NCBI GenBank assembly: GCA_951406725.2
Contig: OX597824.1
Span: 14,570,001 to 14,634,000, forward strand
Length of the DNA: 64,000 bases
Source of the DNA: Octopus vulgaris
Lineage: Eukaryota
Reading direction: 5' to 3'
The translations under genes were made by a program, and so were the position numbers. The notes beneath the pieces were generated by a model. It did not search any database. It was not told the origin of the DNA and saw only the letters and a program-made list of their open reading frames with translations. Shown piece by piece: positions 36,425 through 61,787 of the stretch (positions within the stretch are counted from its first letter, which is position 1; each line of letters begins with the position of its first letter).

Positions 36425-36529
36425 CTGAAATAGATGAAAATATATTATCTTAAAGGGAAATGTCACAAAGAATTTTACACAAATCAGGTACTGACTTTAC
36501 ATAAGACAAAATTTTCACCTGAGTTTCAT

Positions 36530-37057
36530 TTATATGTAGGACAAGGTTTTAACTTATATGTAGGACAAGGTTTTAACTTATATGTGGGACAAGGTTTTAA
36601 CTTATATGTGGGACAAGGTTTTAACTTATATGTGGGACAAGGTTTTAACTTATGTGTAGGACAAGGTTTTAACTTATATGTAGGACAAGGTTTTAACTTA
36701 TATGTAGGACAAGGTTTTAACTTATATGTAGGACAAGGTTTTAACTTATATGTAGGACAAGGTTTTAACTTATATGTAGGACAAGGTTTTAACTTATATG
36801 TAGGACAAGGTTTTAACTTATATGTAGGACAAGGTTTTAACTTATATGTAGGACAAGGTTTTAACTTATATGTAGGACAAGGTTTTAACTTATATGTAGG
36901 ACAAGGTTTTAACTTATATGTAGGACAAGGTTTTAACTTATATGTAGGACAAGGTTTTAATTTATATGTAGGACAAGGTTTTAACTTATATGTAGGACAA
37001 GGTTTTAACTTATATGTAGGACAAGGTTTTAATTTATATGTAGAAGAGGGTTTCAAT
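36530..37057. repeat. 24-bp intronic minisatellite, ~22 copies
   Basis: Unit ttatatgtaggacaaggttttaac; highly homogeneous. Confidence 0.95.
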
Positions 37058-37107
37058 TTACACATAAGACAAGGCTCAAATCTAGAAATAACAATGGTTG
37101 AATTTAC

Positions 37108-37201
37108 CATCACAATCTTCCATTTTATGGGCATCCAGTTTATCTCTACATTGGTAAAGGGTACAAAGAGTAGATCTAAAACAGTCACTAAAAACTGAAG
37201 C
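37108..37201 (-). CDS. UBR2: UBR1/2 exon (94 nt)
   Basis: ASVFSDCFRSTLCTLYQCRDKLDAHKMEDCD; phase 0-1 (different frame from the listed 230-aa ORF). Confidence 0.85.
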
Positions 37202-37839
37202 CTGAAAGTAGACAACAAGAGTTAGTGTGAAAGTATACAGTAGAAGGTGGAATGAAAGTTTACAGCATCACTTTACCTCTATTCAATCGAAATTACCAAA
37301 ATGTTTTCAGAGTTAGTGTTTTATAGATTTGCATTTCCTCAAAACCAAAATACACTAAAGATCAATACCCACATCACGGCCCTGCTTAGCAGTGTGGCTT
37401 ACCTGAGTAACACTGGCCCAGCATATATAATTGTAAATATGTACAACAGGTAAATACGGTTTCACAGCAAGTAAGTAAGTACAATACAAAGGACTAAAGT
37501 GCCTTGTAAGCCAAGAGTGATCAGTTCAAATCCTCACCTAGATCCAATGATTACGGAAGTCATCACAGCATGAAGAAAAATTTTTCCACACTGCTAGACA
37601 TGATAACTATATTCCTGTATGATCCATTTTACCTGACACGACAGCTATACACCCGTATGATACAGTTACAACAATAGCTGTTCACCTGTATAATTCATGT
37701 TATAATAAACGACAACAATACATCTATATGAGCCATATTGCAACACATGACAATTATACACCTGAGCGTATCCATGTTACAATTCACGACAAAAATACAT
37801 TTGTATGATCCATGTTACATGACATGACAACTTGATGTC

Positions 37840-41666: not shown

Positions 41667-42205
41667 GGATTTAAATTAAATAATCCATTGGATTTAAACT
41701 GAATAATCCATTGGATCTAAAATGAATAATCCATTGGATCTAAACTGAATAATCCATTGGATCTAAACTGAATAATCCATTGGATTTAAACTGAATAATC
41801 CATTGGATTTAAACTGAATAATCCAATTGATCTAAACTGAATAATCCAATTGATCTAAGCTGAATAATCCATTGGGTCTAAACTGAATAATCCAATTGAT
41901 CTCAGCTGAATAATCCATCGGGTCTAAACTGAATAATCCATTGGATTTAAACTGAATAATCCATTGGATTTAAATTGAATAATCCATTGGATTTAAACTG
42001 AATAATCCAATGGATCTAAGCTGAATAATCCAATTGATCTAAGCTGAATAATCCAATTGATCTAAGCTGAATAATCCATTGGGTCTAAACTGAATAATCC
42101 ATTGGGTCTCTAAACTGAATAATCCAATGGATTTAAACTGAATAATCCATTGGATTTAAATTGAATAATCCATTGGATTTAAACTGAATAATCCTATGGA
42201 TTTAA
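41667..42205. repeat. 23-bp intronic minisatellite, ~23 copies
   Basis: Unit ggat(t/c)taaactgaataatccatt; self-complementary ggatt/aatcc ends. Confidence 0.95.
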
Positions 42206-42255
42206 AGAGTTAATGAATAAGAAAGCAAATGGGAAGTGAGAGTAAAACAACTTAC

Positions 42256-42337
42256 TATTCTTTTTACTTTCACATTGTTTTAAGAAGGTCTGCAATATCA
42301 CTCCCAACAGGTTGTGTTCTGTGATCAGGAAACGAGC
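42256..42337 (-). CDS. UBR2: UBR1/2 exon (82 nt)
   Basis: ARFLITEHNLLGVILQTFLKQCESKKN; phase 0-1. Confidence 0.92.
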
Positions 42338-45300
42338 CTATTACAAGGACAAAATGGTAGCATAATAATAGTTTTGTAAAGTTGCATAAGAATTAGAATT
42401 CTTATTTAAACATAAACCTCAAATAACAAAACATAACTTCAATTAATCACTAATAATTTGATTTCTTTTAGTCTGCTCCAGCCATGCGAGATAAGGTTCC
42501 ACTTCACAGTTCAGTGATCACAAATGGCATCCAGCAATAAAAAAAAACTATTTCAATTAATTAATTCCTACAAATTCCACAATTTCTATAAATATCTTCG
42601 TAGAGATATTTACTGTGATAAAATTTAACAGGGAAATGGTATGGGATAAGAGGAGGACAGACTGACTGTCCATCTTACTGAGGAGGTTGATAAGGTAAGG
42701 AGTTAAATACTGGAGGCTAATTTAATTCACTGTGCATTATTCCTCTTTCAGCAATCAGTGACATTATGTCAAAGCTAGTAGTCTATGTAATGTTCTTGAA
42801 TAAATTGTAACTGATACAAAGGAAATAAAACCATAGCTATTATATAAACAAGTATTCAAAAAAAGATAATCAAATACATTTTTAATTACACCAATTATTT
42901 TGTAATAGAGGTTATAATGGATTTCATTTTAAAAGTTCTCAGTTAATGAGGATGCTATTTACCAAAAGATAAACTTCATCAAATAATATCTTTGACATTC
43001 TCTCATCATCGTTTAATGTCCGCTTTCCATGCTAGCATGGGTTGGACGATTTTGACTGAGGGCTGGCGAACCAGATGGCTGCACCAGGCTCCAATCTTGA
43101 TTTCGCAGAGTTTCTACAGCTGGATGCCTTCCTAATGCCAACCACTCCGAGAGTGTAGTGGGTGCTTTTTACGTGCCACTGGCACGGGGGCCAGTTAGGC
43201 GGTACTAGCAACGACCTATATCGAATCTTTTTACACATGCCACCAGCACAGCATATATTCACTTATTTGTATTTATGTCTGTTTTCCATACTTGCATGGG
43301 TTAGATAAATATGCTGTTAAGGCATTGTTTTACAGCCAAATGCTTTCTGTTACTAACCTTTACTTTTTTTACAATTAAGGGATCTCATATCCCACTGGGC
43401 TTTGAAGGCACAAATGATTTGTTGATAGAATAACTGACAACAACAATACACACACACACACTCACAGAGTAATTCAGAATGAATGGTAAAAAAAAAACAA
43501 AAATAATACAGGTGAGTGTTGTAATTAATATATTGTACAATACAGATATTCTTTTTTTGTATCACTCATTTTGAATTACCGTGTATATATATATATGCAC
43601 AGACAATAGTCTTTTTTTCAGTTTCCATGAATCAAATCCTCTCACAACAAGGTTTTAGTCAGCTGAGGACTGTAACATGACACCTGCTCAAGGTGCCATG
43701 CAGTGAGGCTGAAACCCAAACCATGTGGTTGGGAAGTGAATTTCTTAACCACACACCCATGCCTGTGCCCTAAATATGCAATAACACTGATAAGCAGTAC
43801 TTGGATGTCTATTAAGGACTTCCATAATTATATTTTATTAATCTCTCTCTCTCACATCTGGTATACGTATGTGTGAAAGACAGAGAGAGAATAACAAAAT
43901 ATAATAGTGAAAATATTTAACAGACACCCAAGTATTGCTCAACAATAGAAATACAAGATTAAAATAAGACTTTATAAATACTTTAAAAGAGGCAATACTT
44001 TAAAAATGAAGACCATTTAAAGTTATTCACAGGAATGCCAGATATAACACAGCTCCAACAGAGTTTCTACTTAACAAAAAAAAAGTTTTTTTTAATGATA
44101 ATTAATGAAGGGAAAGCTAATGAACCAGTGAATTTCATTTTTTTAATGCCTTAGACAGAGGGGGAAAGGCAACACCAACAGCCTTTCTCAGGGCTTCAGG
44201 GAATGGTGAAAAGAAAAGAGGAAGTTAATCAAAGGCCAAAGACTTGATACAATAATTGCAACTGAATGCATTCTACTGAAGACAGTGAACTGGCAACTCC
44301 AAGACTTCAGACATGCTGCTTATTTGAAGTTTAGCTCTGTGCAATTAAATTTCATGATTATTCCAGTAATGATGTTAAATATCGATCATCATCATCATCG
44401 TTTAATGTCTGCTTTCCATGCTGGCATGGGTTGGACGATTTGACTGAGGTCTGGCGAACCAGATGGCTGCACCAGGCTCCAATCTCATCTGGCAGAGTTT
44501 CTACAGCTGAATGCCCTTCCTAACGCCAACCATTCTAAAAGTATTGTGGGTGCTTTTATGTGCCACCGGCACGAGGGCCAATCAGGTGGTACTGGCAACG
44601 GCCACGCTCAAATGGTGCTTTTTATGTGCCACCTGCACAGGAGCCAGTCCAGCAGCACTGGCAATGACCTCGGTCGAATGTTTTTTCAGTAAGGTGACGC
44701 AGGTAACGATCACGCTCGAATGGTGTTTTTTACGTGCCACCAGCATGGAGGCCAGCTTGTTTGCTCTGGCAACAATCATGCATAAAACAGAATTGTTATT
44801 TCCTACAAGTCATGTTATCTCAACAAACTTGACATGTCTCATCATAAAAATAGTTTCAAACATGACATTCCTCAAGAAAAAATAAATTGGTATATAAAAT
44901 TGGTTTCTGAAGTTTAGGGAGTGGAAATATCTGATTTCTGCAGTAGAAGGGGTTAATAGCTCTTGCCACACTACAAAAAGCTTTTGTATAGCTGGTTCAA
45001 ATTCTTGCATACTGATTGTTCGTAACTTTTGGGATTAAAATACCTGCAACATTTGCTGTGAATTCATTAATTCTTCTGCAAAACCCTGATCTGTTGCAAA
45101 TAAGCAGCTCAAATGTCTTTTTCCAAACCTGTTTATCCATATCAGGAAGTAGGAATGTCAAGAAATATTCTGATGACATAACGATACTTCTCATTGGTTA
45201 CTATTTACCATCAGCCTATGGTAAGGTTCTATAAATAATAGTTTAATCCATTTTGAAATAAGAATTAACTTATAGTTGTCAAAATATTTTAACTTTTTAT

Positions 45301-45369
45301 TGACAAACTAACATGACCTATTTCAGATGGTCAGATGTTTAATATGTGAGTGAGTGAGTGTGTGTGTGT

Positions 45370-45408
<39 letters not shown>

Positions 45409-45410
<2 letters not shown>

Positions 45411-46262
45411 GGGTGCGTTGGGTAAATTGTCACATTTTATATTTTTAATTTTGCACATGCACACCGTTTGTTTTTGATTTTGTTGACTACACAATATAGT
45501 AGGGTCAGTTGGGCACTATCTGTAAGAAAAACAGCATCCTGATGCAATTCCCTTTGCCATGCTGTAATGCTTGGCATTCATGCCAGAAGCTCCAATATGA
45601 ACATTTCAGAGTGTTTGTGGTTCAATTTGAGGACATGTACTGAGAGTGATAAAAAAAAAATCAAACCTCCCATCAACATCATGGTGTTTGGAGTGATCAC
45701 TAGTGATGGCAACACTATGCCTCCATTCGCCTTCGCACAAGGCCTCACACTCAACATGGAAGCCTACATCAAGTGCCTGGTGGAGGTAGTACTGCCCTAG
45801 GCCAAGAGGGTGGCTGCTGGAAGACCTTGTCTAGCAACAGGACTCTGCACCATGCCACACAAACAGGAGAGCCTAGTCATGGCTGTCAGACAATTTCTGC
45901 GACCACATCAACCCTAACATCTGGCTGTCTAACTCGCTAGACTGCAACGCCTTGATTATTATATGTGGAGTGCAGTTGAGCATGAGATTAGCAAAACTCT
46001 TTGTAACACCAAAAATGAACTGAAGGCAAGGATTATGGAAGCATTCACCAACTTAAACAAGGAGACTGTCCAGAAGAGTTGCAGGAGATTCTAAAGTCTT
46101 TTGGAGGCCGTGGTTGAAGCCAATGGCGATTTTATTGAATAAATTTACTCTTTAGTATTTCAAGATATTTTTATGTAATTTTGGTAAATAGATCTTAAAA
46201 TGAGATGTCAGTTATTTTTTATTTATGCGCAATTTAGACAACAGTTTATTCACTGCACCCTG
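45409..46262 (+). mobile_element. Degenerate Tc1/mariner transposon, DD37D (maT) type
   Basis: cagggtgc...gcaccctg termini next to a TA repeat; IMVFGVITSDG..MPP, QQDSAPCH...DCNxLDYYMW with ~37-aa D-D spacing; stops and frameshifts. Confidence 0.85.
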
Positions 46263-46856
46263 TGTGTGTATGCTTCCCCTTTTTACTCTTCTACTTGTTT
46301 CAGTCATTTGACTGTGGCCATGCTGGAGCACTGCCTTTAGTCGAGCACATCGACCCCAGGACTTACTCTTTGTAAGCCTAGTACTTATTCTTTCGGTTTC
46401 CTTTGCCGAACTGCTAAGTTACAGGGACGTAAACACACCAGCATCGGTTGTCAAGCGATCTTGGGGAGACAAACACAGACACACAAACATATACATACAT
46501 ATATACGATGAGCTTCTTTCAGTTTCCGTCTACCAAATCCACTCACAAGGCTTTGGTTGGCCCGAGGCTATAGTAGCCACACAGTGGGACTGAACCTGGA
46601 AACATGTAGTTCGTAAGCCAGCTACTTACCACACAGCTACTCTTATGCCTATATATATATATATCAATAGTAATGTATTGCAAAATGTCTCAAATTATAC
46701 AACTACAAGAAACATTTCTCAGATCTTTTAATGATGACATCTGGCAGCATATATTTCTGTGATGGAAATGGAAATTAGTCTAAAAACATAGGTTTAGGTA
46801 ATTCCTTTAGATATGGAACACTGCTTAAGAATGAGACAGCAGTAGAAACAACCTAC

Positions 46857-46955
46857 CACCTTAGGAGCTGTGAAAATCTGAAGGGAATCAGAGATAATGG
46901 AAACCGATCGTAAATGATCATCCTTGATAAAGTTCTGCATAAGTTGAGCATAGTG
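46857..46955 (-). CDS. UBR2: UBR1/2 duplicated exon, copy B (99 nt, candidate mutually exclusive)
   Basis: tag|HYAQLMQNFIKDDHLRSVSIISDSLQIFTAPKV|gtaggt; phase 0-0; 16/33 aa identical to copy A; long polypyrimidine tract. Confidence 0.88.
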
Positions 46956-47005
46956 CTAAAATAAGAAACAAGAAAATCAAAAGAAACGGTAATAAAAAGG
47001 TTATT

Positions 47006-47081
47006 ACATGGCAGTATTTTGCATTTACATAATCAATTACAACATATAACGTAAATAACAGCCATAAATATCAACTTTACT
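47006..47081 (-). promoter_or_regulatory. 3' arm of putative intronic long-range RNA stem (pairs with 48554-48632)
   Basis: Plus strand acatggcagt...tgcatttacataatcaattacaa...taaataacagccataaatatcaacttta is collinear with the reverse complement of 48554-48632; ends 50 nt before the exon B acceptor. Confidence 0.65.
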
Positions 47082-48553
47082 TGGTCATCCTAACAATATA
47101 TAAACAGTTCTATCAAATGAGTTTAACTAAATTTTAAAATAGGTGAAAAGAGTACGTCGTTAGTGATATTTTTTTCATAGTTGAAAACAATTAGATATAA
47201 ACACGTTTAGCTAATTCAGTTTTTAACAATCTAAATTTCTTTTTGTGGATAAATGCTTCAGTAGGTTGTACTTTCAATAAAAAAAAAAAGAATTTAACTG
47301 TAAAGCAATACAACTATTTAAAACTACTGCAGGGGAGTATATCAAATTTGATAAATTTCTGTTTCATGGTTATCAATTGTATTAACAATTACAACAATTG
47401 CTATTAAATTAGCAAATATTTGCTTTAAAAACGATAAAACAAATAGTTATGCTATTATTATAAAGCAATTATTCATGCAACAATAGCATTTGGTGGTGCT
47501 GCCAAGGACAAACAATTTCTTTAAAAGAATTTCTATTGTTTCAGTTGTTTTGTTACTTATTTGGCTCAGAAAATTATAAGAAAGTATATTTTTTTTTAAA
47601 TAAATTTTAAGAAGTTTAACAAAAGCAAAAATGAAAATAAAAAAAAAATTTCTATATATGGAATATTCTCAGAGAAGCTTTGCAATACTGCATTTTAATT
47701 TTGATTTCATTTCTTTTTTTTTCTCCAGCATGTAGTTAAGCAAGCGCTAAAGATTGTTTAAAACAAGTAATAATTCAACCATTGAAACTTCCAGAAAACA
47801 ATGAAATCTTCATTAAAATATTACTGTAAATCAATGTCACATGTTAATTAATTTAGATAAAGGTAAGGCCAATTAGTGATATGCCTTTTTTCCCATCATT
47901 TTTAAAATGAAATGAAAAAGAACGGGGAGAAATGTTTGTAATAAGCAGAACACACTTCAGCTTTGTACACTTTCATTCAACTAAAAGATTTATGAAAACT
48001 GTCTTGTAATATTTGTTTAACCTGGTGTAATTTTTTTTTTTTTTAATTTTTTTTTAATGGTAGCTAACCATGTAGACCAATCAGCAAACAAGTATTGCAA
48101 CCAGTGCAATAGTGTGCAAACTATAAACAATATAGACACCAGGATTAAAACCAAGATACCTGCAATTCCTAAACGATTGCTTTCTCCGCTTAACAGTCAG
48201 TTGCAGCACCAATTTAAAGTTAGTTTTTAAGAAATGCTAGGAAACACTTAAAAGAAAATAAACTATATTGCATTACATAATTTGTTGCATTCAGCTACAA
48301 ATGAAACCTGTCTGAACACCAAGTTTATTTGAAAATTAAATATCTAACCAAGAATATCAATCTCATTCTATTTGTCAATATTGCTGAATCCTCAAAGAAT
48401 CCAACCAAGAATTTAAAGGATACCAAAAAGTAACATGTCATTTAAGTTCCTTGATAGGATCAGCACAATCGCTAGATGGACCTAATTATACCTACTTCTA
48501 TACTAGTGTGCAGGTTAATTAATTTCATGTAACATCAAGTCTAACTGAGGCAC

Positions 48554-48632
48554 AATAAAGTTGATGTTTGGCTGTGATTTATGCTCAGGTGTTTGAAATT
48601 GTTTATGCAATTGCACAGTAAAACTGCCATGT
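48554..48632 (-). promoter_or_regulatory. 5' arm of putative intronic long-range RNA stem (pairs with 47006-47081)
   Basis: Pre-mRNA ACAUGGCAGU...UGCAAUUGCAUAAACAAUUUCAA...UAAAUCACAGCCAAACAUCAACUUUA; starts at intron nt 20 after the exon A donor. Confidence 0.65.
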
Positions 48633-48651
48633 GCTTTCCTGATTAACATAC

Positions 48652-48750
48652 CAGACTGGTCAGAGTAAAGATTTGGACAGAAAGGGACACGACGGACACT
48701 TCATGGTCGTGGTCATCTTGTAAAAAGTCTTCCATCAGTTGAGAATATTT
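48652..48750 (-). CDS. UBR2: UBR1/2 duplicated exon, copy A (99 nt, candidate mutually exclusive)
   Basis: cag|KYSQLMEDFLQDDHDHEVSVVSLSVQIFTLTSL|gtatgt; phase 0-0. Confidence 0.94.
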
Positions 48751-51700
48751 CTGTGGAAATATAGCACAGTAACATTTCATTGACCTAAACACGGCCAAAC
48801 CAGACAGTAATTTGAAGAGAACAAAAAAGGGGAAAGAGAATAACTGTATTGATTTGTCAGGAAAGGATATCAAAGTGGAAAAGAAATTGAGGGACACCAA
48901 TGACTTGGCTGGAATTTAGAACAGTTTTTATTATTAAAAAATATAAAATAAAAAATAAAATGGAACAGATCAATATACAATTATATATAGTTTAAAATTC
49001 AGATCAGGGAGAAATGAGCCAATATATGTGTGTCTACACCAAATTTAGAGGAATTATATAATACAATATTGTAGTGAACATTAAAAACTAATGCTAGCAA
49101 TTTTTAATAGATTTAGAGCTGCCTAATTTTTAATAGACTCTCAGACTTTTGGCAATAGTTTTATCTACAGTTCAATCAATACACATTCTTGTTCTGTCTA
49201 TTGTTAAAAAATACTGTATTCTGGTACAAAATAATGAAGTTAGTAGTTTATTACTGGTAGAGTTGATAAACTAGAAATTAATTAAAAGCAACAGAAATTA
49301 ATTTTAAAATGTGATTGGGGAAATGTTCCTTCTTCAAGATTTTCTCAGTATTTATATCTTTTACGACAGACTCATTCTATGTGATGCTCAGGTTTTTGCT
49401 ATGAATGTTCTGTTATACAACTTCAGCACAGCATCACATAACTTGATTCGCCAACTGAGACACTAACTCCTTAGTGTATAAACCAGCCATATCTGGCCCA
49501 GATATTCTACATGTTTTATATTCAAACTGGCCAGGTCCAGCCTCTCACACCTAACCTACAGTGACATTCTAACGATAAACAATCACATCATTGAAACCTC
49601 AAAGCTATAAGATAATGCAGGATTAATTCAAAACAATTTGAGCGAAAGAGTATTACATTTAACAGAGTAATCTGAACACAAAAGGGTTAAGTATTATTTC
49701 ACACTGAACATTCCCCTATTAACTAAAAGTTAACAAAGAATGAATTTTCTTTAAACTGAGATTTTGCAGTAAGAAATAATTGTGATCTACCAATTACTAC
49801 ACACTTCATCTTAAGTTTTCCTTATCCTAAAATGGCAATACAATAAATTTAATCTTGATTTTTTTTCTTCTTTTTACAACAATGTTTTTAATGTGTCTTG
49901 AACCTTTACTAATTTTATCATAATAATTATCACCATCATCATCTGCCTTCCATACTGGCAAGGATGGGACTAATTATAAATTTACTAAATAAGCAACTAA
50001 TTAAACTAAGCAGTTTTGCAAAGTATCTTTCCTGTCCTGTATTTGTAAATAATTGAGTAAACAACATAATCATATGAGGAATAGTTTAATATATTTCAGC
50101 ACTATCCCCATTAAAGATGCTGGTATTTCTACTAAACTTAAAGAAAACCCCTGCTAAAAATATCTAAGGGGACATAGTGGGGAAAAAAAGTAAGGCTCTC
50201 ACATTTACTCTATAAAAAATCAACCACTTAACCTGGTATTTTTTATCTTTTACTTGTTTCAGTCATTAGACTGTGGCCATGCTGGGGCACCACCTTGAAA
50301 AAATTTTAGTTAAATGAATCAACCCCAGTTCTTTTTTTTCACCCCTTTTTAAGCCTGGTACTTGTTCTATCAATCTCTTTTGCTGAACTGCGAAGTTACA
50401 GGAACATAACCACACTGAAACTGGTTGTCAAGCAGTGGTGGAGGTGGTGACATCACACACACACACAATGGGCTTCTTTCTGTTTCCATCTACAAAATCC
50501 ATTCATAAGGTTTTGATCGGCCCAAGATTATAGTAAAAGACACTTACCCAATGTGCCACATAGTGAGACTGAACCAAGAACCATGCAGTTGGAAAACAAG
50601 CTTCTTACCACAAAGACACACCCAGCATTATTATTATTATTATTATTATTATTATGAATTTTGTAAACGAATGTTCAAATTAGGCAACTAGATTCACTAG
50701 CATTAGGTAAAAAAATATTAAGGCCACTATTAATTTATCAATCAGGTAATCTCCCAACAATTTATGACAAATAGTTTTTATTATTAATATCCTTTTCTAC
50801 TCTAGGCACAAGGCCCGAAATTTTGGGGGAGGGGGGCCAGTCTTCAGTCAAATCGTCCAACCCATGCTAGCATGGAAAGCAGACGTTAAACGATGATGAT
50901 GATATGCCCAACCAGCCATATCTTAACTAATTTTGCATCCTTTCATATAATTTCCTTTTTCACAAACAGAAAGGGATGCTTATCTCATTTCTCTCTACAG
51001 ATCATCTCTATTCAATGATGCTGACTCATGTAGCCTCATTCTCTCTGCACATGTATTATACAACCTATCTTTTGTGGAGAGAGAGAGAGAGAGAGAGGGG
51101 GTATTCTGTTGCTGGAAGTATTTCCTGAATTTCTTCCAAACTGGCTGGGTTTTTTATTTTCCTTCTTTACTCCAATTGCAAAACTTTTACTATAACCACA
51201 CCCATCAGTAACCAAGCTACCTTAGGTAACAGAAACTGCCTAGTATTATCCTGCAGTTTCAATATTGCTTGCAACAAAACCTGAATGATAAAAGTCAGCA
51301 GTGTGAAGTTATCAAAGGATCTATGACAACAAAACAGAAATAGGTAGACTCTTTTAAAACTTATGTGAGAATGAACATAAAAGGCACTGAGTGATCTAGT
51401 GATATGGACACTGGAATGTAAATGAGTGAGGATAGCTGAAGGTTAACAAGGTGCCCTTAATTCGTAGAAGAAGACACCAGTGTAGGAGTAAGGAGGCTAG
51501 AGAAGCGTTGGAAGTTCAGGTTAGATCTGAGAAAGTGAGATCCTACAAATGAGATTACACAATAAATATAAAGTAAAGCTTTGTTACTGATATTTAAAGC
51601 AGGTTTCTCATGGGAAGAAGGTTTGCTGTAAAAGGTGAAACAGAGGAGGTAAACTGTCGTGTTTAATAGCAATTTGTCATCTTCTTAAACCTCTTAGTAT

Positions 51701-54451
51701 TCATCTCAAATATAATGCTTATTTATTCACATGGTTTCGAATTAATCTTGCATTATCTGGTAGCCCTTAGGTTTCAGTGATGTGATTGTAAGGTAGGCGT
51801 GAGAGGTCAATTTGAACATAAAACAGGTGGAGTATTTTGGCCAGATATCACCAACTTAACTGCTTAGGAGCGAAGAGGGTTTTAAACTTGTCTAGCATCA
51901 TGATGAAGAAAGAAGAATTATATGAATGCAAACTATACTGTCTAAGTGGAGGAGGCCAAAAAAGCCGATTGTGCTATTACAAGCACAAGTGTTGCAGTGC
52001 ACTAAGAAGCTTGCTTCCAAACCAATGGTGTCTAGTTCAGTCTCAATGTGTAGCACCATGGGCTAGTCTCTTCTACTATCGCCCTGGGCTAACCAAAGCC
52101 TTGCAAGTGGATTTGGTAGATGGAAACTAAAAGAAGCCTGTTTGTGTGTTTCATTTTGTCCCCAATAGAATAAGTACCAGGCTTACAAAAAAATTTTAAA
52201 AAGGCTTGTCCTTTCAGAAACTGGTGCCTATGCTGGTGCTGCATTGACGCACCAGTGCCAATGGCACATAAAAATCACATGGCACACTTAAGTGGTTGGC
52301 ATTAGGAAGGGCATCCAGCCGTAGAAACCATGCCTCAACAGACAGCTCCCTTCTAACCAGCCCCATGTCAAACTGTGCAACCCATGCCGGCATGGAAAGT
52401 GGAAGTTAAACAACAACGATGGGGTTGATTCATTTGACAAGAAAAAGTTTACAAAATGGTGCCCCAGCATGGCCACAGTCTAATGACTGAAACAAGTAAA
52501 AACGATTAGCTGAAAGAAGTGGAGATATTTGTCAGTTTAGCAGGCACTGATTAAAATAAAGATGATGATGATGATGATGCACAGTATGTTCAACTGCAGC
52601 CTACACAAGCATCTCCACTTTGCACATTTTGCTCCTCTTAATGTATCAGTCAAATCTCCCTTAAAGTTTCCAATTAATTTGAATTGAAATCAAAATCAAA
52701 TTAGATGACTGGCATCCATACCAGTGGAGTGCTAAGAGTACCATACGAACGTGATCATTGCCAGAGCAACTAACTGGCCTCCGTGCCGGTCTTAGTAAAA
52801 AGCACTATTTCAGCGTGATCGCTACCTGCACTGCCTTACTGGCACCTGAAAAAACATTCGGGCGAGGTCATTGCCAGTGCCGCTGGACTGGCTCCTGTGC
52901 AGGTGGCACATAAAAAGCACCATTTGAGCGTGGCCGTTGCCAGTACTGCCTGACTGGCCCTCATGCCAGTGGCACATAAAAGCATCTACTACACTCAGAG
53001 TGGTTAGCATTAGGAAGGGCTTCCAGCTGTAGAAACTCTGCCAGATGAGATTGGAGTTTGGTGCAGCCATCTGGTTTGCCAGTCTTCAGTCAAATCGTCC
53101 AACCCATGCTAGCATGGAAAGCGGACGTTAAATGATGATGATCTTGTGTTTCTGCCAAACCATAAATCTAAACTAGTAACCATCAAATACTGACACACAA
53201 TCTGTACCAATACCAACACAACTTAGATGTATCTATTATTTTCAACTTACTTTTGTTAACTCTATGTAAACATACTCTCTATTCCATTCCCTAAAACATT
53301 GGTATATGAAATTATCATTCATACCACACAATCTTCTCTAAATTATATTTATTAACATTTTGATCATCTCTACACTTGTTCTGTAAGCATTTTGATTTTA
53401 ATTCACCTTTCTAAATCTTAGCTGCATTTTTACTGATACAGTAAACAATATAAATATTGATCACATCAATGTGATGGTTACTTAAACTTATTTATTTACT
53501 ACCCACAGGGGGCTAAACACAGGGAGGACAAACAAGGACAGACAAACGAATTAAGTCGATTATATCGACCCCAGTGCACAACAGGTACTTATTTAACTGA
53601 CCCTGAAAGGATGAAAGGCAAAGTCGACCTCGGCGGAATTTGAACTCAGAACATTAGCGGCAGAAATACCACTAAGCATTTCGCCCGGCGCCCTAACAAT
53701 TCTGCCAGCTCGCCGCCTTAAACTAGATCGCTGTGGGCAGGATGGTTACTTAAACCTATTATATCTATCACTGATCTAGGTCTAACTTTTAAATGCTTAA
53801 ACTTGTTTATATTCTGAAAATAATTTTAAAAAAAAATAAAACCTACAGAAATTACTATGAACAATACTACTAGATACTACATCAACAAATTGTAAAGATT
53901 TAGAGAAATTTTGAATTTGTTCATTAAAACAAGATACTGTGAAGTCTTAAGCCTTTTCCTAATTTAGTTAAAATACATTCACTCGTGTTGTCATTCTAGG
54001 GTTGAAAAGCTCTTGAGCAGGGGTTCCCAAATTAGAATTGACACCAATTTAATAATTCTGGATTTATACATTTTTGTTTTTAATTATAATTTTAACAATT
54101 CTGAAGTTAAGAAAATTTGAATGCGGCCAATTTTGTGAAAAAAAATACAAATTATATATTTTTTTCTTTCTACCATATTAGATTTAATGATCAGTATTGT
54201 ATAATTCTTAATTACTGTGTTACAAATGGGGAAGTTAGGAAGACTAGTATATAAATGACATAAAACTGCAATGTACTGTGTATTCTTTATTGTTATTTGA
54301 ATAATGTCTAAGCTTTTGTTACCATATTTCTGTTGGAATATGCTGCTTTTGTTTCAACTGATTTTGAAAATGATGAAGAATTTAGTAAAATAACTGTCAT
54401 TATTAAGCTAGTGTTTGGAACACAAATTAACATGAAAATTTGATGAAAGGT

Positions 54452-54677
54452 CTGTTGTGTCTGGGGAGAGTCATTTTCTTTTTGTGCCTTATAATTTAAC
54501 ACACTCACCGGTAAAATTTTAGGAAAATAAAGATGAAAAATAAGTGGAAATTTTACCGGTGAGTGTGTTACATTATAAGGCACTGAAAGAAAATTATTCT
54601 CCCCAGACACAACAGAATATGCTTCAACACACAAACTCATATAAAGAATCTTGCAAACCAAATCCAAAAACGAAATA
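54452..54677. mobile_element. Asymmetric hairpin repeat element nested in a TTAA MITE
   Basis: 12-bp TSD ttgatgaaaggt (54440-54451/54678-54689); same family as 40235-40465. Confidence 0.78.
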
Positions 54678-55860
54678 TTGATGAAAGGTATTAAGTGGGA
54701 AGTTTGTATCACAGAACAAAGGTTTCTCAAGTGGACTGGTAGCAAAAGGGTTAAAAACAGCATTTAAAAAATTTCCTTTTTGTTGGTTGTTTTATGAAGG
54801 TAGAAGTGTAAATTCAAATTACTGAACTAAACAGAATTGCAGAATAAATTTACTTTGCAAAAATTGCAAGGGGTAAATAAATAAATAAATAAATAAAAAA
54901 TGGTTGGGAACTCCTGCTCTACAGATTTAGAGAATTATATATATATAAAAAAAAAAGTGTTTTGATGTCAGAGAATGAAGAATTTCAACAGTCAACTCGA
55001 AGTTTCACATGGTTCTTAAACTGTATAATAAAAATATGAAACTTTTTCTATTTAAAAAAAAAAAAAATGTAACATATTGCAATAAACTTATTTATAGCCC
55101 TATTATAATAATACTTTTAAAAAATTACAATGAAATAGTACTGGATTTGGCAATTCTGGGATTCAGATTAACACCAGAAGAAAAATTACAACTTTTTAAG
55201 AAAAGTTGGTGATAATCATTAAAAAAAACTGGAATAATATTCAATTATAATTTTAGGTACTGTATGCTCTAATCTAATAATAATAAGGTATTATCACAAG
55301 TTTAATTCTATAATCAGGTACCATAAGCTATAACCTAGAAACTGCAGCTATAAAATAAAACCAATTCATTGCAAACAGTTCATTCGTTTACTTGGTAATG
55401 TGTTATATACCATGTAGTTATTTTATATTTTGATCAACAGGCTTTCAGTTAAAGTCGCTGTCTCATGAGATTTCGCTATATAAATTCCAACAAGTTTTAC
55501 ATTCTTATGTAATAATAGATGTGTAAACCTTGACACAGCAATAAAAACAGCAGTAAGCTATGTTCTGAACAGGGTCAGTAGAGTATAAGAGACTAAGATT
55601 AAAATTTAGGAGTAAGATTTATGGAACACTAAACTATCATTTGGATAACATTGTCTATAAATAGAGATAATTAAATGACAGCAATAGATCATAAAACAAA
55701 CTAAAAAAACAACGTTGATTCTTAAACTGGGATAGTCAATAATTTACTGAGGACACTGTGGTAATAAATCTAGCATTTTTATTATTCGTGATTAGAAAAC
55801 AAACAAAAGCAAAATTATTAAAAAAAATTTTCCTATTGATTAAAAAAAAAATGTTCTTAC

Positions 55861-55912
55861 CTCAGTAAACATCACTCCAAACTGACGTTTACATTCCTGA
55901 TCCCTCAGAACC
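55861..55912 (-). CDS. UBR2: UBR1/2 exon (52 nt)
   Basis: aag|VLRDQECKRQFGVMFTE|gtaaga; phase 2-0. Confidence 0.9.
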
Positions 55913-56085
55913 CTTCAAAGAAAATATACCAAATAACGGTTTGAGCACTGAACGTTCAAGCAGTGGTTATATAAAACACAAAACATCAGTAAAAGTACAT
56001 CATTAAGAATATGACACCATGTTTTTAATATTGCAGTCTATCAACTCATAAAATAGTCACAAAGTTCGTTAAATGATGTATTTAT

Positions 56086-56734: not shown

Positions 56735-57236
56735 CTAGCAGTATCGCCCGGCGTTGCTCGGGTTTGTAAGGGAAATAACTATATAAGCATTTTTAGAGAG
56801 TTACTTCCCTTATAGATGCCAATTCGGGCTTTCTTAGCCATTTCTGTTTTGGTGTCTTCAAGCCATGAAGTCGTTGTTCTAAAAGAACACTGGTCTCCTT
56901 GACAACGCATTACGACATTGATTTCCTTACACTCCCTTTCCCACAGCTTCACGAGGGAGGGAAGAAGGGGGAGAAGCAAACAGGTGCAGGTGTGACCATG
57001 GACGCCAACTCCGCCGCCATCGACACACGAAAAATTATGCATTAAAATGGAATAAAAAATGATGTTAAATTATTTTTAAAATCGTAGACTCATGCTAATA
57101 CTCAGAAGGGCTCGATATGAATCACGACTATAAGATACCCGAATTTGGTTAAACTGCACCGCAAAATGTGGGAGTAGTTAGGAATCTAAATCGAAGGGGA
57201 CAGACACTCACACAACTACAGTTTTATATATATAGA
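56735..57236 (-). mobile_element. Non-autonomous Helitron-like element
   Basis: Reverse orientation: TC start at 57236, hairpin cccgagcaacgccggg, CTAG end at 56735. Confidence 0.75.
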
Positions 57237-57515
57237 TGACTTAAATAAAACATTCTTACATATTTATACATTTATTTTAAAAAATTAAAATGAAGCAGAT
57301 TTGAAACAAGTTTACTAATTTTATGGGTGAATCGAACAAACGAACGAATCAAATGAATGGGCAAATCAAACAAACATCAGCTAGAAAAGTAAAAAGTAGA
57401 TAATTAAAATTTTAATACATTTAGTATTTAAAAGAAATTAGAATAAAGCAAATTTAAACAAGTTTGCTAATTTTATTGTTAATACATTTATTATTAAAGT
57501 TTATGATTTAATACA

Positions 57516-57812
57516 TCTTTATATATAAAATTCAAGTTGTGTGTGTGAGACTCTGTCTCCTCCGCTTTAGATTCCTAACTACTTTTACATTTTGCAGTGC
57601 AGTTTAACCAAAAGCGGGCATCTTATAGTCGTCATTCATATCGAGCCCTTCTGGGTATTAGCGCGCGTCTATGATGAGTCTATGATTTAAAAAAAAATTT
57701 ACCATCATTTTTCCGCATTTTTGCTCGGGTTATATAAGGGAAGTAACTCTCTAAAAATGCTTATATAGTTATTTCCCTTACAAACCTGAGCAACGCCGGG
57801 TGATACGGCTAG
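57516..57812 (+). mobile_element. Non-autonomous Helitron-like element (internally shorter sibling of 56735-57236)
   Basis: A|TC start, cctgagcaacgccggg hairpin, CTAG|T end. Confidence 0.75.
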
Positions 57813-60483: not shown

Positions 60484-61174
60484 CTACAAAAGAAAGGGCC
60501 AAAGAAGTCGGTTATTTCAGCAAATAATTAAGCTTGTTCTCAATATAAGAATAATAACTGTAGTGACGAAAAAATTCCATAAAATTTGCTGAGCAATTAC
60601 TGGCATACACCGCCAGAGTTTGAAACCTGCCACAGGCAGTATAAGGTAAAGTTGGTGAAGCCTTTTATTGGACTTGTCTCATCTTTTGTTTCCTTTCTTT
60701 TAATATTTGGCGTTTACCAATGTAAAGGCTATTTTTGTTGTTTGTCCCTTCTCGAGCCATGCCTGGCTCATAAGGGCCGGTTTCCCAGCTTCCTTGGCGT
60801 ATAGGTTCCCCACCTGGACGGGACACCAGTCCGTCGCAGGTGAGCTGCAAGATGCAGGAAGAAAGGGTGAGAGAAAGTTGTGGCGAAAGAGTCAGCAGAA
60901 GTTCGCCATTACCTTCTGCCGGAGCCACGTGAAGCTTAGGTGTTTCGCTCATAAACACACACATCACCCGGTCTGAGATTTGAACCCGCGATCCCTCGAC
61001 CACGAGTCCGCTGCTCTAACCACTAGGCCATGTGCCTCCACAAAGGCTATTTACAGAGGGAACATGGGAAAAGAGGAACATCTACAGAGTTCAGGATGAA
61101 GGATTGCATGTCTTATAGTTAGGGAGTGTGCGTGTGAGAGGGAAACAGTGTCTGATATGCAAAGGTAATAATCA

Positions 61175-61563
61175 GTTTTATGGACTGTATCTTCATTTCT
61201 TCAATAAAATTGTCATGTACCCAAGACAAAAGGAATTATTTCACTAAACCAAATTTTAATTGTATTACCAGTTTGAAAAGAAGCAGAGGCAGTTAACAGG
61301 TTTCTGGACAAAATAACAGGAAGAATAGGTAGAAAAGGGCAAAAGGCCATTTTTGTTAGATAAATTAGCTAAGAAGAGGTCAGTGGTTTCAAGGGAAACC
61401 AGCTGTGAAATGCTTTTTCCAATGATTTACAGTGAAATGCAAAATTGAAGAACACTGCAATACAGTAAGCTGGTACAATTAAAATTTGGTTTAGTGAAAT
61501 AATTCCTTTTGTCTTGGGTACATGACAATTTTATTGAAGAAATGAAGATACAGTCCATAAAAC
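61175..61563. repeat. Inverted repeat, 90-bp arms, 209-bp spacer
   Basis: 61175-61264 is the reverse complement of 61474-61563. Confidence 0.9.
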
Positions 61564-61787
61564 GGATTCCTAGTAACATAATGAAGCTGACATTATCCTC
61601 GGAGAGGTAAAAGACAAAGTAGATAATGCAGACAATCCCAAACATTTTAAATTCAGAAACAAGAGATATGATACTGAATATTTTAAATCATTTAATTTGG
61701 TTCTCTATTTTCAAAAACCACCTCCGCTGTCCTACTTTATTAAAAATTAAATTCAATACAATAACTAAAAATAAAATGTATACCTAC

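Follow-up and report, generated by a model that had tools for sequence, protein, structure and literature searches.

A long-range RNA stem predicted to join the two ends of the intron between alternative exons of an octopus UBR1/2 gene

The UBR1/2 locus and its tandem exon pair

The window analysed here, 64,000 nt of Octopus vulgaris contig OX597824.1 (positions 14,570,001 to 14,634,000), contains most of the length of a UBR1/2 E3 ligase gene on the minus strand. A 42-residue query around one of its exons, denoted exon A, returned three candidates, all of which were cephalopod-type UBR2-like proteins, and an Octopus vulgaris-named protein, P0019, was mapped on the window with 39 canonical introns. 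Exon A is followed by exon B, which has the same length and phase, and both are open in the same frame (Table 1). As both exons match segment 395/396-426 of human UBR2, they are tandem homologous exons for one protein segment, and 14-16 of the 33 residues are identical between A-type and B-type exon peptides. The pair is placed between the ClpS (217-295) and winged-helix (763-859) domains, and the intron separating the two exons (48651-46956, minus strand) is 1696 nt long and runs from GT to AG. Among cephalopods, exon B is diverging faster than exon A, with 24-31 and 31-32 of 33 residues kept, respectively, and octopod exon B has S-D-S-L where exon A has S-L-S-V. Elsewhere in the window, an intron contains a long 24-nt tandem array (36434-37221) with repetitive open frames of 231-254 aa on both strands.

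Table 1. Features of the exon pair and of the intron between them, in the order of transcription
Feature	Position	Strand	Basis
Upstream constitutive exon U	55861..55912	-	tblastn and junction search; loose ends of exon A contigs read the U 3' end in 3/3 RNA-like runs
Variable exon A, 99 nt, phase 0, 33 aa; human UBR2 residues 396-426	48652..48750	-	spliced on both sides in X9, X10 and X13 contigs
Exon A donor (GTATGT) and 19-nt linker to stem	48633..48651	-	sequence
Stem 5' arm, 79 nt; closed by a perfect helix of its outer 10 nt, -15.5 kcal/mol	48554..48632	-	alignment, fold
Looped-out interior, 1472 nt, AT-rich	47082..48553	-	sequence, fold
Stem 3' arm, 76 nt	47006..47081	-	alignment, fold
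Candidate branch-point motif, predicted branch A at 47001 (-46); weaker candidate A at 46977 (-22)	47000..47006	-	motif scan
Exon B pyrimidine tract and acceptor AG	46956..46999	-	sequence
Variable exon B, 99 nt, phase 0, 33 aa, paralog of A; human UBR2 residues 395-426	46857..46955	-	B-only isoforms P0017, P0021, P0025, P0026, P0014, P0018
Downstream constitutive exon D	42256..42337	-	tblastn and junction search; loose ends at 48651 read the D 5' end

The two exons had been claimed to be mutually exclusive, and the isoforms on record, which with one exception use one exon at a time, are in keeping with this. Among 19 cephalopod proteins covering the site, 12 carry exon A only, six carry exon B only, including that of Argonauta (P0018), and one carries both, so that 18 of 19 have a single exon; the sole record with both is a gene model of Sepia pharaonis (P0007). 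Isoforms X1 and X2 of O. sinensis, as well as several O. vulgaris isoforms, differ by the A/B exon, so that the pair is already annotated. In a decapod-like cluster, the transcript-derived proteins P0010 and P0014 differ at this site by the A/B exon alone.

To these records we added four runs, compared over 46760-48860, out of a list of 24 that spans four closely related organism labels and contains none on record as RNA; three of the four are RNA-like, their RNA nature being presumed, and their contigs show the presence of a form and not its level, with rare forms and minor variants dropped. In all three RNA-like runs, contigs of exon A pass on either side into letters of exons U and D, corresponding to U-A and A-D joints. 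No A-B joint was listed in the contigs of any of the four runs, although contigs cannot prove absence. Exon B was covered in one of the three RNA-like runs, and missing coverage of exon B (X10 and X13) or of the 5' arm of the stem (all four runs) counts as no evidence. One X9 contig breaks off at 46957 and has 28 unplaced letters, which would fit a U-B junction because exon U, like the B acceptor, has AG at its end, whereas exon A has TG. This X9 contig (46760-46957) continues from exon B unspliced into the downstream intron and is likely a partly spliced U-B intermediate.

Complementarity between the two ends of the intron

The reverse complement of the 5' arm aligns collinearly with the 3' arm, and the perfect blocks named in the original prediction are present. 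The arms are about 75% identical, with indels, and the predicted duplex has 59 bp. When the duplex was compared with shuffled controls, as had been suggested, its energy was -60.3 kcal/mol against -23.8 +/- 3.7 kcal/mol for 500 dinucleotide shuffles of the arms (z -9.8), and the best shuffle reached -37.7 kcal/mol; this control is post hoc, as the arms were pre-selected. When the whole intron was instead compared with its own reverse complement without pre-selected arms, the score of 50 was reached by 4 of 300 shuffles, and the pair alone is only modestly beyond chance. In the fold of a 2201-nt stretch of the pre-mRNA, the stem dominates, with mean pair probabilities of 0.97 for the 10-bp helix and 0.94 for the 49-bp helix. 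It is predicted to become more stable on cooling, with an energy of -60 kcal/mol at 37 °C and -85 kcal/mol at 18 °C, which might allow tuning by temperature. Two inner helices (48199-48159 with 47295-47333 and 48257-48241 with 47236-47259; -43 kcal/mol over 106 nt, score 16) were within background and were rejected. For part of the linker next to the donor (48634-48642), the predicted partner is the pyrimidine tract that precedes exon A (48857-48865, probability 0.94) or, in a co-fold, that of exon B (about 46970-46985), and this part of the linker is possibly a small competing element.

The differences between the arms had also been said to give G-U pairs in the pre-mRNA. Such pairs are present, but they show no strand bias (3 of 59 pairs, against 4 of 62 on the opposite strand) and are not evidence for an RNA structure; the opposite strand folds equally well (-62.2 kcal/mol), and the absence of bias is what neutral decay would give. 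As for A-to-I editing, no substitution was seen in one RNA-like contig over 71 nt of the 3' arm, in an assembly where minor variants are dropped. In one run of another organism label, at a depth of 3.6, one of five substitutions lies within the 3' arm, where it would disrupt a base pair whose other position was uncovered.

Inverted pairs are common in this gene, and the best pair of an intron scores at least 50 in 12 of 40 introns. The length left outside the pair, however, is 69 nt in the A-B intron versus 394-4856 nt in the other 11. When the first 130 nt of each intron were scored against its last 130 nt (38 end pairs, with four short introns skipped and two added rows in which the acceptor is one base off), the A-B intron gave z -9.5 and a score of 50, whereas the other 37 gave z no lower than -3.0 and scores of at most 24. 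The signal is the placement at both intron ends, and the A-B intron is the only one in the gene that is paired end to end. By a hand estimate, two 78-nt arms placed at random in the intron would leave at most 69 nt outside with a probability of (69/1540)^2, or about 0.002. A long AG-free zone was discarded as evidence, as the 119 nt found here compare with 117, 110, 87, 85, and 83 nt elsewhere in the gene. Many strong inverted pairs also lie within single introns (for example, 57055-57712, 61170-61568, and 211-1835); they probably derive from dispersed repeats and could be editing substrates.

The arms could also have no part in splicing and be a neutral relic, left either by an old element whose terminal inverted repeats have decayed or by an inverted duplication. 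The arm identity with its indels, the lack of G-U strand bias, the frequency of inverted pairs in the gene, and the intron-wide shuffles would all agree with such an origin. On the other hand, the arms had been described as lying outside the repeat families of the window, and in the genome two DNA searches and two pattern searches revealed no other copy in 2.8 Gb, within a seed-limited sensitivity that may miss diverged or old copies. No target-site duplication was found at the arm ends, whose flanks differ. The loop interior had no genomic match outside itself and no Rfam family at the gathering score (one match fell below it), and its longest stop-to-stop frames are 59-73 aa. In a metagenome scan, one of 306 candidate stretches came up, a chance, bacterial-like hit. 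That the arms came to lie at the two ends of the one exclusive intron by chance is unlikely, and an element origin would be compatible with function, as a 69-nt intron would tolerate an insertion that folds. We consider a purely neutral relic improbable. A self-pairing insertion into an ancestral short intron may explain why the arms lie at both ends, an origin that neither an element family nor a target-site duplication supports.

Splice-site geometry and the predicted consequence of folding

The distances of the original prediction proved right: the stem starts 19 nt from the donor and ends 50 nt from the acceptor, the candidate branch A is at -46, and the loop is 1472 nt. The 3' arm had been placed directly before the branch motif; in fact, the two overlap by one base, a U that begins the motif and ends the stem. 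The predicted branch A at -46, which has the best motif, lies about 5 nt past the stem and is followed by the 44-nt pyrimidine tract. An intronic contig of the RNA-like run X13 (47011-47253) ends at 47011, 10 nt from this A, which, as a single contig, gives a weak hint of a lariat end. The linear distance from donor to branch A is 1651 nt, far above the limit of about 50 nt that defines the steric class, and only in the folded state does it become about 24 nt (19 nt plus a linker of about 5 nt), as had been predicted, which is below both the steric threshold of about 50 nt and the 42-nt minimum of the yeast model. With the weaker candidate at -22 the folded distance would be 48 nt, at the threshold, so the steric argument would weaken; separately, opening of the outer 10-bp helix would give about 55 nt by hand count. 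According to the available part of a study on OGDH (PMC7969005), branch points 25-41 nt from the donor enforce exclusion, with a threshold of about 50 nt, and the introns are restricted in size and intolerant of insertions. Modelling of the yeast A complex, in the available part of PMC12350175, requires a linker of at least 42 nt and at least 20 nt from stem to branch point. The octopus stem violates both rules, which supports a block of A-B splicing and also suggests that U2 could be hindered at exon B in general.

Based on the placement and the geometry, we are inclined to believe, by a modest preference, that the stem folds the long intron into a short intron that is sterically unspliceable, so that A and B are joined only to U and D. 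The intron ends, complementary over about 78 nt, would pair end to end in the nascent RNA, leaving an effective intron of 69 nt in which the exon A donor is about 24 nt from the predicted branch point. This spacing is likely too short for the spliceosome to join A to B, and each exon would be spliced only to the flanking exons. The structure had been described as a candidate switch, a term that we could not uphold: within the 13.8 kb between the flanking exons, each arm pairs best with the other, by a margin of 19-23 kcal/mol. The search for competing docking sites in 42200-56000 revealed none; there, the next-best partners reach -42.5 and -38.1 kcal/mol versus -61.2 kcal/mol and sites of 13-22 bp could be missed. 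The stem would act as a fixed clamp and not as a two-state switch, and the choice between A and B would be left to splice-site strength or to proteins. Nor does it hold that such a mechanism is needed because nonsense-mediated decay cannot enforce exclusivity, since in the available part of Hatje et al. (PMC5740500) 484 of 629 human clusters are left to other causes, for example RNA-binding proteins.

As the candidate branch A lies 4-5 nt beyond the end of the helix, compared with the 20 nt needed in the yeast model (PMC12350175, available in part), folding would likely weaken exon B too. The stem might then be functional mainly as a repressor of exon B, covering the strand upstream of the branch point where U2 loads, with B skipped by default and proteins excluding A when B is chosen. 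The runs are in line with this, as A was seen spliced in all three RNA-like runs and B was covered in one, in terms of presence and not level, and FGFR2 is reportedly regulated by a stem between mutually exclusive exons, as a title indicates. However, such a repressor would have no need for a 5' arm starting 19 nt from the A donor, the 69 nt outside the stem match the intron inferred in fish, and nothing was found that could compete for an arm and so open the stem. We regard it as unlikely.

In yeast, splicing is aided by stems that draw the donor close to the branch point (PMC12350175, available in part), and the octopus stem could likewise be a zipper that assists removal of the A-B intron and permits an A+B isoform. 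The stem keeps the separation of at least 10 nt from the donor found in zippers, and the branch candidate at -22 would give 48 nt, within their range of 42-85 nt; the Sepia model joins A and B. With the best motif at -46, in contrast, the distances from stem to branch and from donor to branch are about 5 and 24 nt, short of the zipper spacing, which the weaker -22 candidate alone reaches, and both the four runs lacking an A-B joint and the 18 single-exon proteins speak against an A+B product. We hold this role to be highly improbable.

Exclusion could also be due to a genuine distant branch point located close to the A donor, as in OGDH or tropomyosin, with the stem being incidental. This mechanism is known for longer intervening introns (PMC7969005, available in part), but the A-B intron contains 74 AG dinucleotides with an AG-free zone of just 119 nt, and the sole branch-like motif in its first 150 nt is at +9, so we see very little chance of such a branch point here. 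The clamp by the stem remains the reading that we prefer.

The vertebrate UBR2 parallel and comparison with known systems

A search of 1.84 billion representatives with exon B gave one match, P0027, a 106-residue read-through with two copies of the exon 21 codons apart. P0027 led to 305 proteins; 120 were among the matches listed and were vertebrate UBR2 wherever named. When 143 proteins were tallied by motif, 38 had two copies (one being the Sepia model), 104 had one copy, and one had none. In jawed vertebrates, UBR2 likewise has this 33-residue exon in two copies. Read-through proteins, six in all and fish or fish-like, gave spacers of 63, 65, 68, 78, 78, and 27 nt, as deduced from proteins that comprise three low-quality models of named teleosts and three fish-like records; the 65 and 68 nt spacers come from out-of-frame matches (31/33 and 9/9 residues). 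The intervening intron of teleosts would thus be 63-78 nt in five of six cases, bracketing the 69 nt of the octopus, and fish likely keep the same UBR2 exons apart by a truly short intron. Against the steric reading, a spacer between the exons is lacking in most of the 37 vertebrate or vertebrate-like records with two copies, which join them directly. In the teleost UBR2 models P0052 and P0066, the first copy is spliced onto an acceptor that lies 18 nt into the second, which is what one would expect of a regular acceptor too near the donor to be used. In the available parts of the sources, PMC9741552 (supplement row) lists the human UBR2 pair ENST00000372901 / ENST00000372899 and gives its age as Gnathostomata, and bioRxiv 10.1101/863175 describes two 33-residue exons of hamster Ubr2 whose use shifts with a drop in temperature.

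In a tree of 26 exon peptides (33 columns), the best topology separates A and B of cephalopods from E1 and E2 of vertebrates with support of 76/82, while shared origins of the duplication were not rejected (p-AU 0.11 and 0.38). The cephalopod and vertebrate duplications are likely independent. In both, the same 33-residue segment is duplicated and used alternatively; the difference is a linear intron of 63-78 nt, as deduced for teleosts, versus 1696 nt and a stem in the octopus. This parallel of the vertebrate exon duplication with the octopus pair, including the matching spacer deduced from proteins, is new, and it points to a likely convergent isoform switch in an N-degron ligase scaffold, in the ClpS to winged-helix region.

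With more reserve, we suggest a wider possibility, which we would not yet rate as an even chance: a self-pairing stretch of 1.6 kb may lie inside a former steric intron of about 69 nt, and its folding may restore the geometry of a short intron (a 'folded steric' route). Octopus and fish would then have arrived at an equal effective intron length along different routes, each after its own duplication of this UBR exon, and stems clamping intron ends could explain part of the exon pairs with long introns. For frame-preserving pairs with long introns, the cause of exclusion is mostly unexplained, the 484 human clusters being assigned elsewhere (Hatje et al., PMC5740500, available in part). The original prediction knew of no description in a UBR1/2 gene, and no account of the stem was found in the literature searched, most subscription papers lying outside it; UBR1 and UBR2 are absent from the text and 10 supplements of PMC5740500, as far as that source was available. 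Further literature compared, each in its available part, comprised PMC6071210, PMC11802352, PMC12962786, PMC4691838, PMC6027157, PMC8042237, PMC13762713, PMC7404189, PMC12397408, and bioRxiv 2023.08.19.553947. A stem that shortens the effective donor-branch distance is a simple and searchable rule, and if true, the folded route would free steric introns from their size limit. A natural comparison is offered by vertebrates, which have this exon in duplicate and among which teleosts appear to separate the copies by a truly short intron.

Mutually exclusive exons based on steric interference are known from alpha-tropomyosin. Like OGDH exons 4a/4b, the octopus exons are tandem and homologous, with a donor-branch distance below about 50 nt predicted to block their joining. 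The available part of Hatje et al. (PMC5740500) attributes 57 human clusters (9%) to steric interference, which was tested only in introns shorter than 500 bp. The octopus differs from this class in that the distance is short only once the intron is folded. In insect Dscam1 exon 17, the steric block reportedly results from linear proximity, and RNA structures are said to bias the choice. The difference would be that in the octopus the structure itself creates the proximity, and an overlap with the clamp model is possible. Similarities are that Dscam1 exon 17 is a two-exon cluster for which steric hindrance and RNA structures are invoked (Yue et al. 2013, from the title), and that its pairing spans 15 bp over 1000 nt (from a review table).

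The docking/selector pairings of Dscam1 exons 4, 6, and 9, ATE1, and srp are also long-range intronic pairings at mutually exclusive exons; in the octopus, however, no shared element with two partners was found, and the stem loops out intron only and no exon. The FGFR2 IIIb/IIIc stem brings protein-binding elements together and is not known to be a donor-branch clamp. It has in common with the octopus stem a double-stranded element at two mutually exclusive exons, as the title of a paper states. Yeast zipper stems of the RPS17B type are intronic and draw donor and branch point together as well (PMC12350175, available in part), but they keep a linker of 42-85 nt and aid splicing, whereas the octopus linker of about 24 nt is predicted to block it. 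Taken together, the octopus stem is outside the linear steric class, the docking/selector systems, and the yeast zippers, and it would work like the exclusion seen in OGDH.
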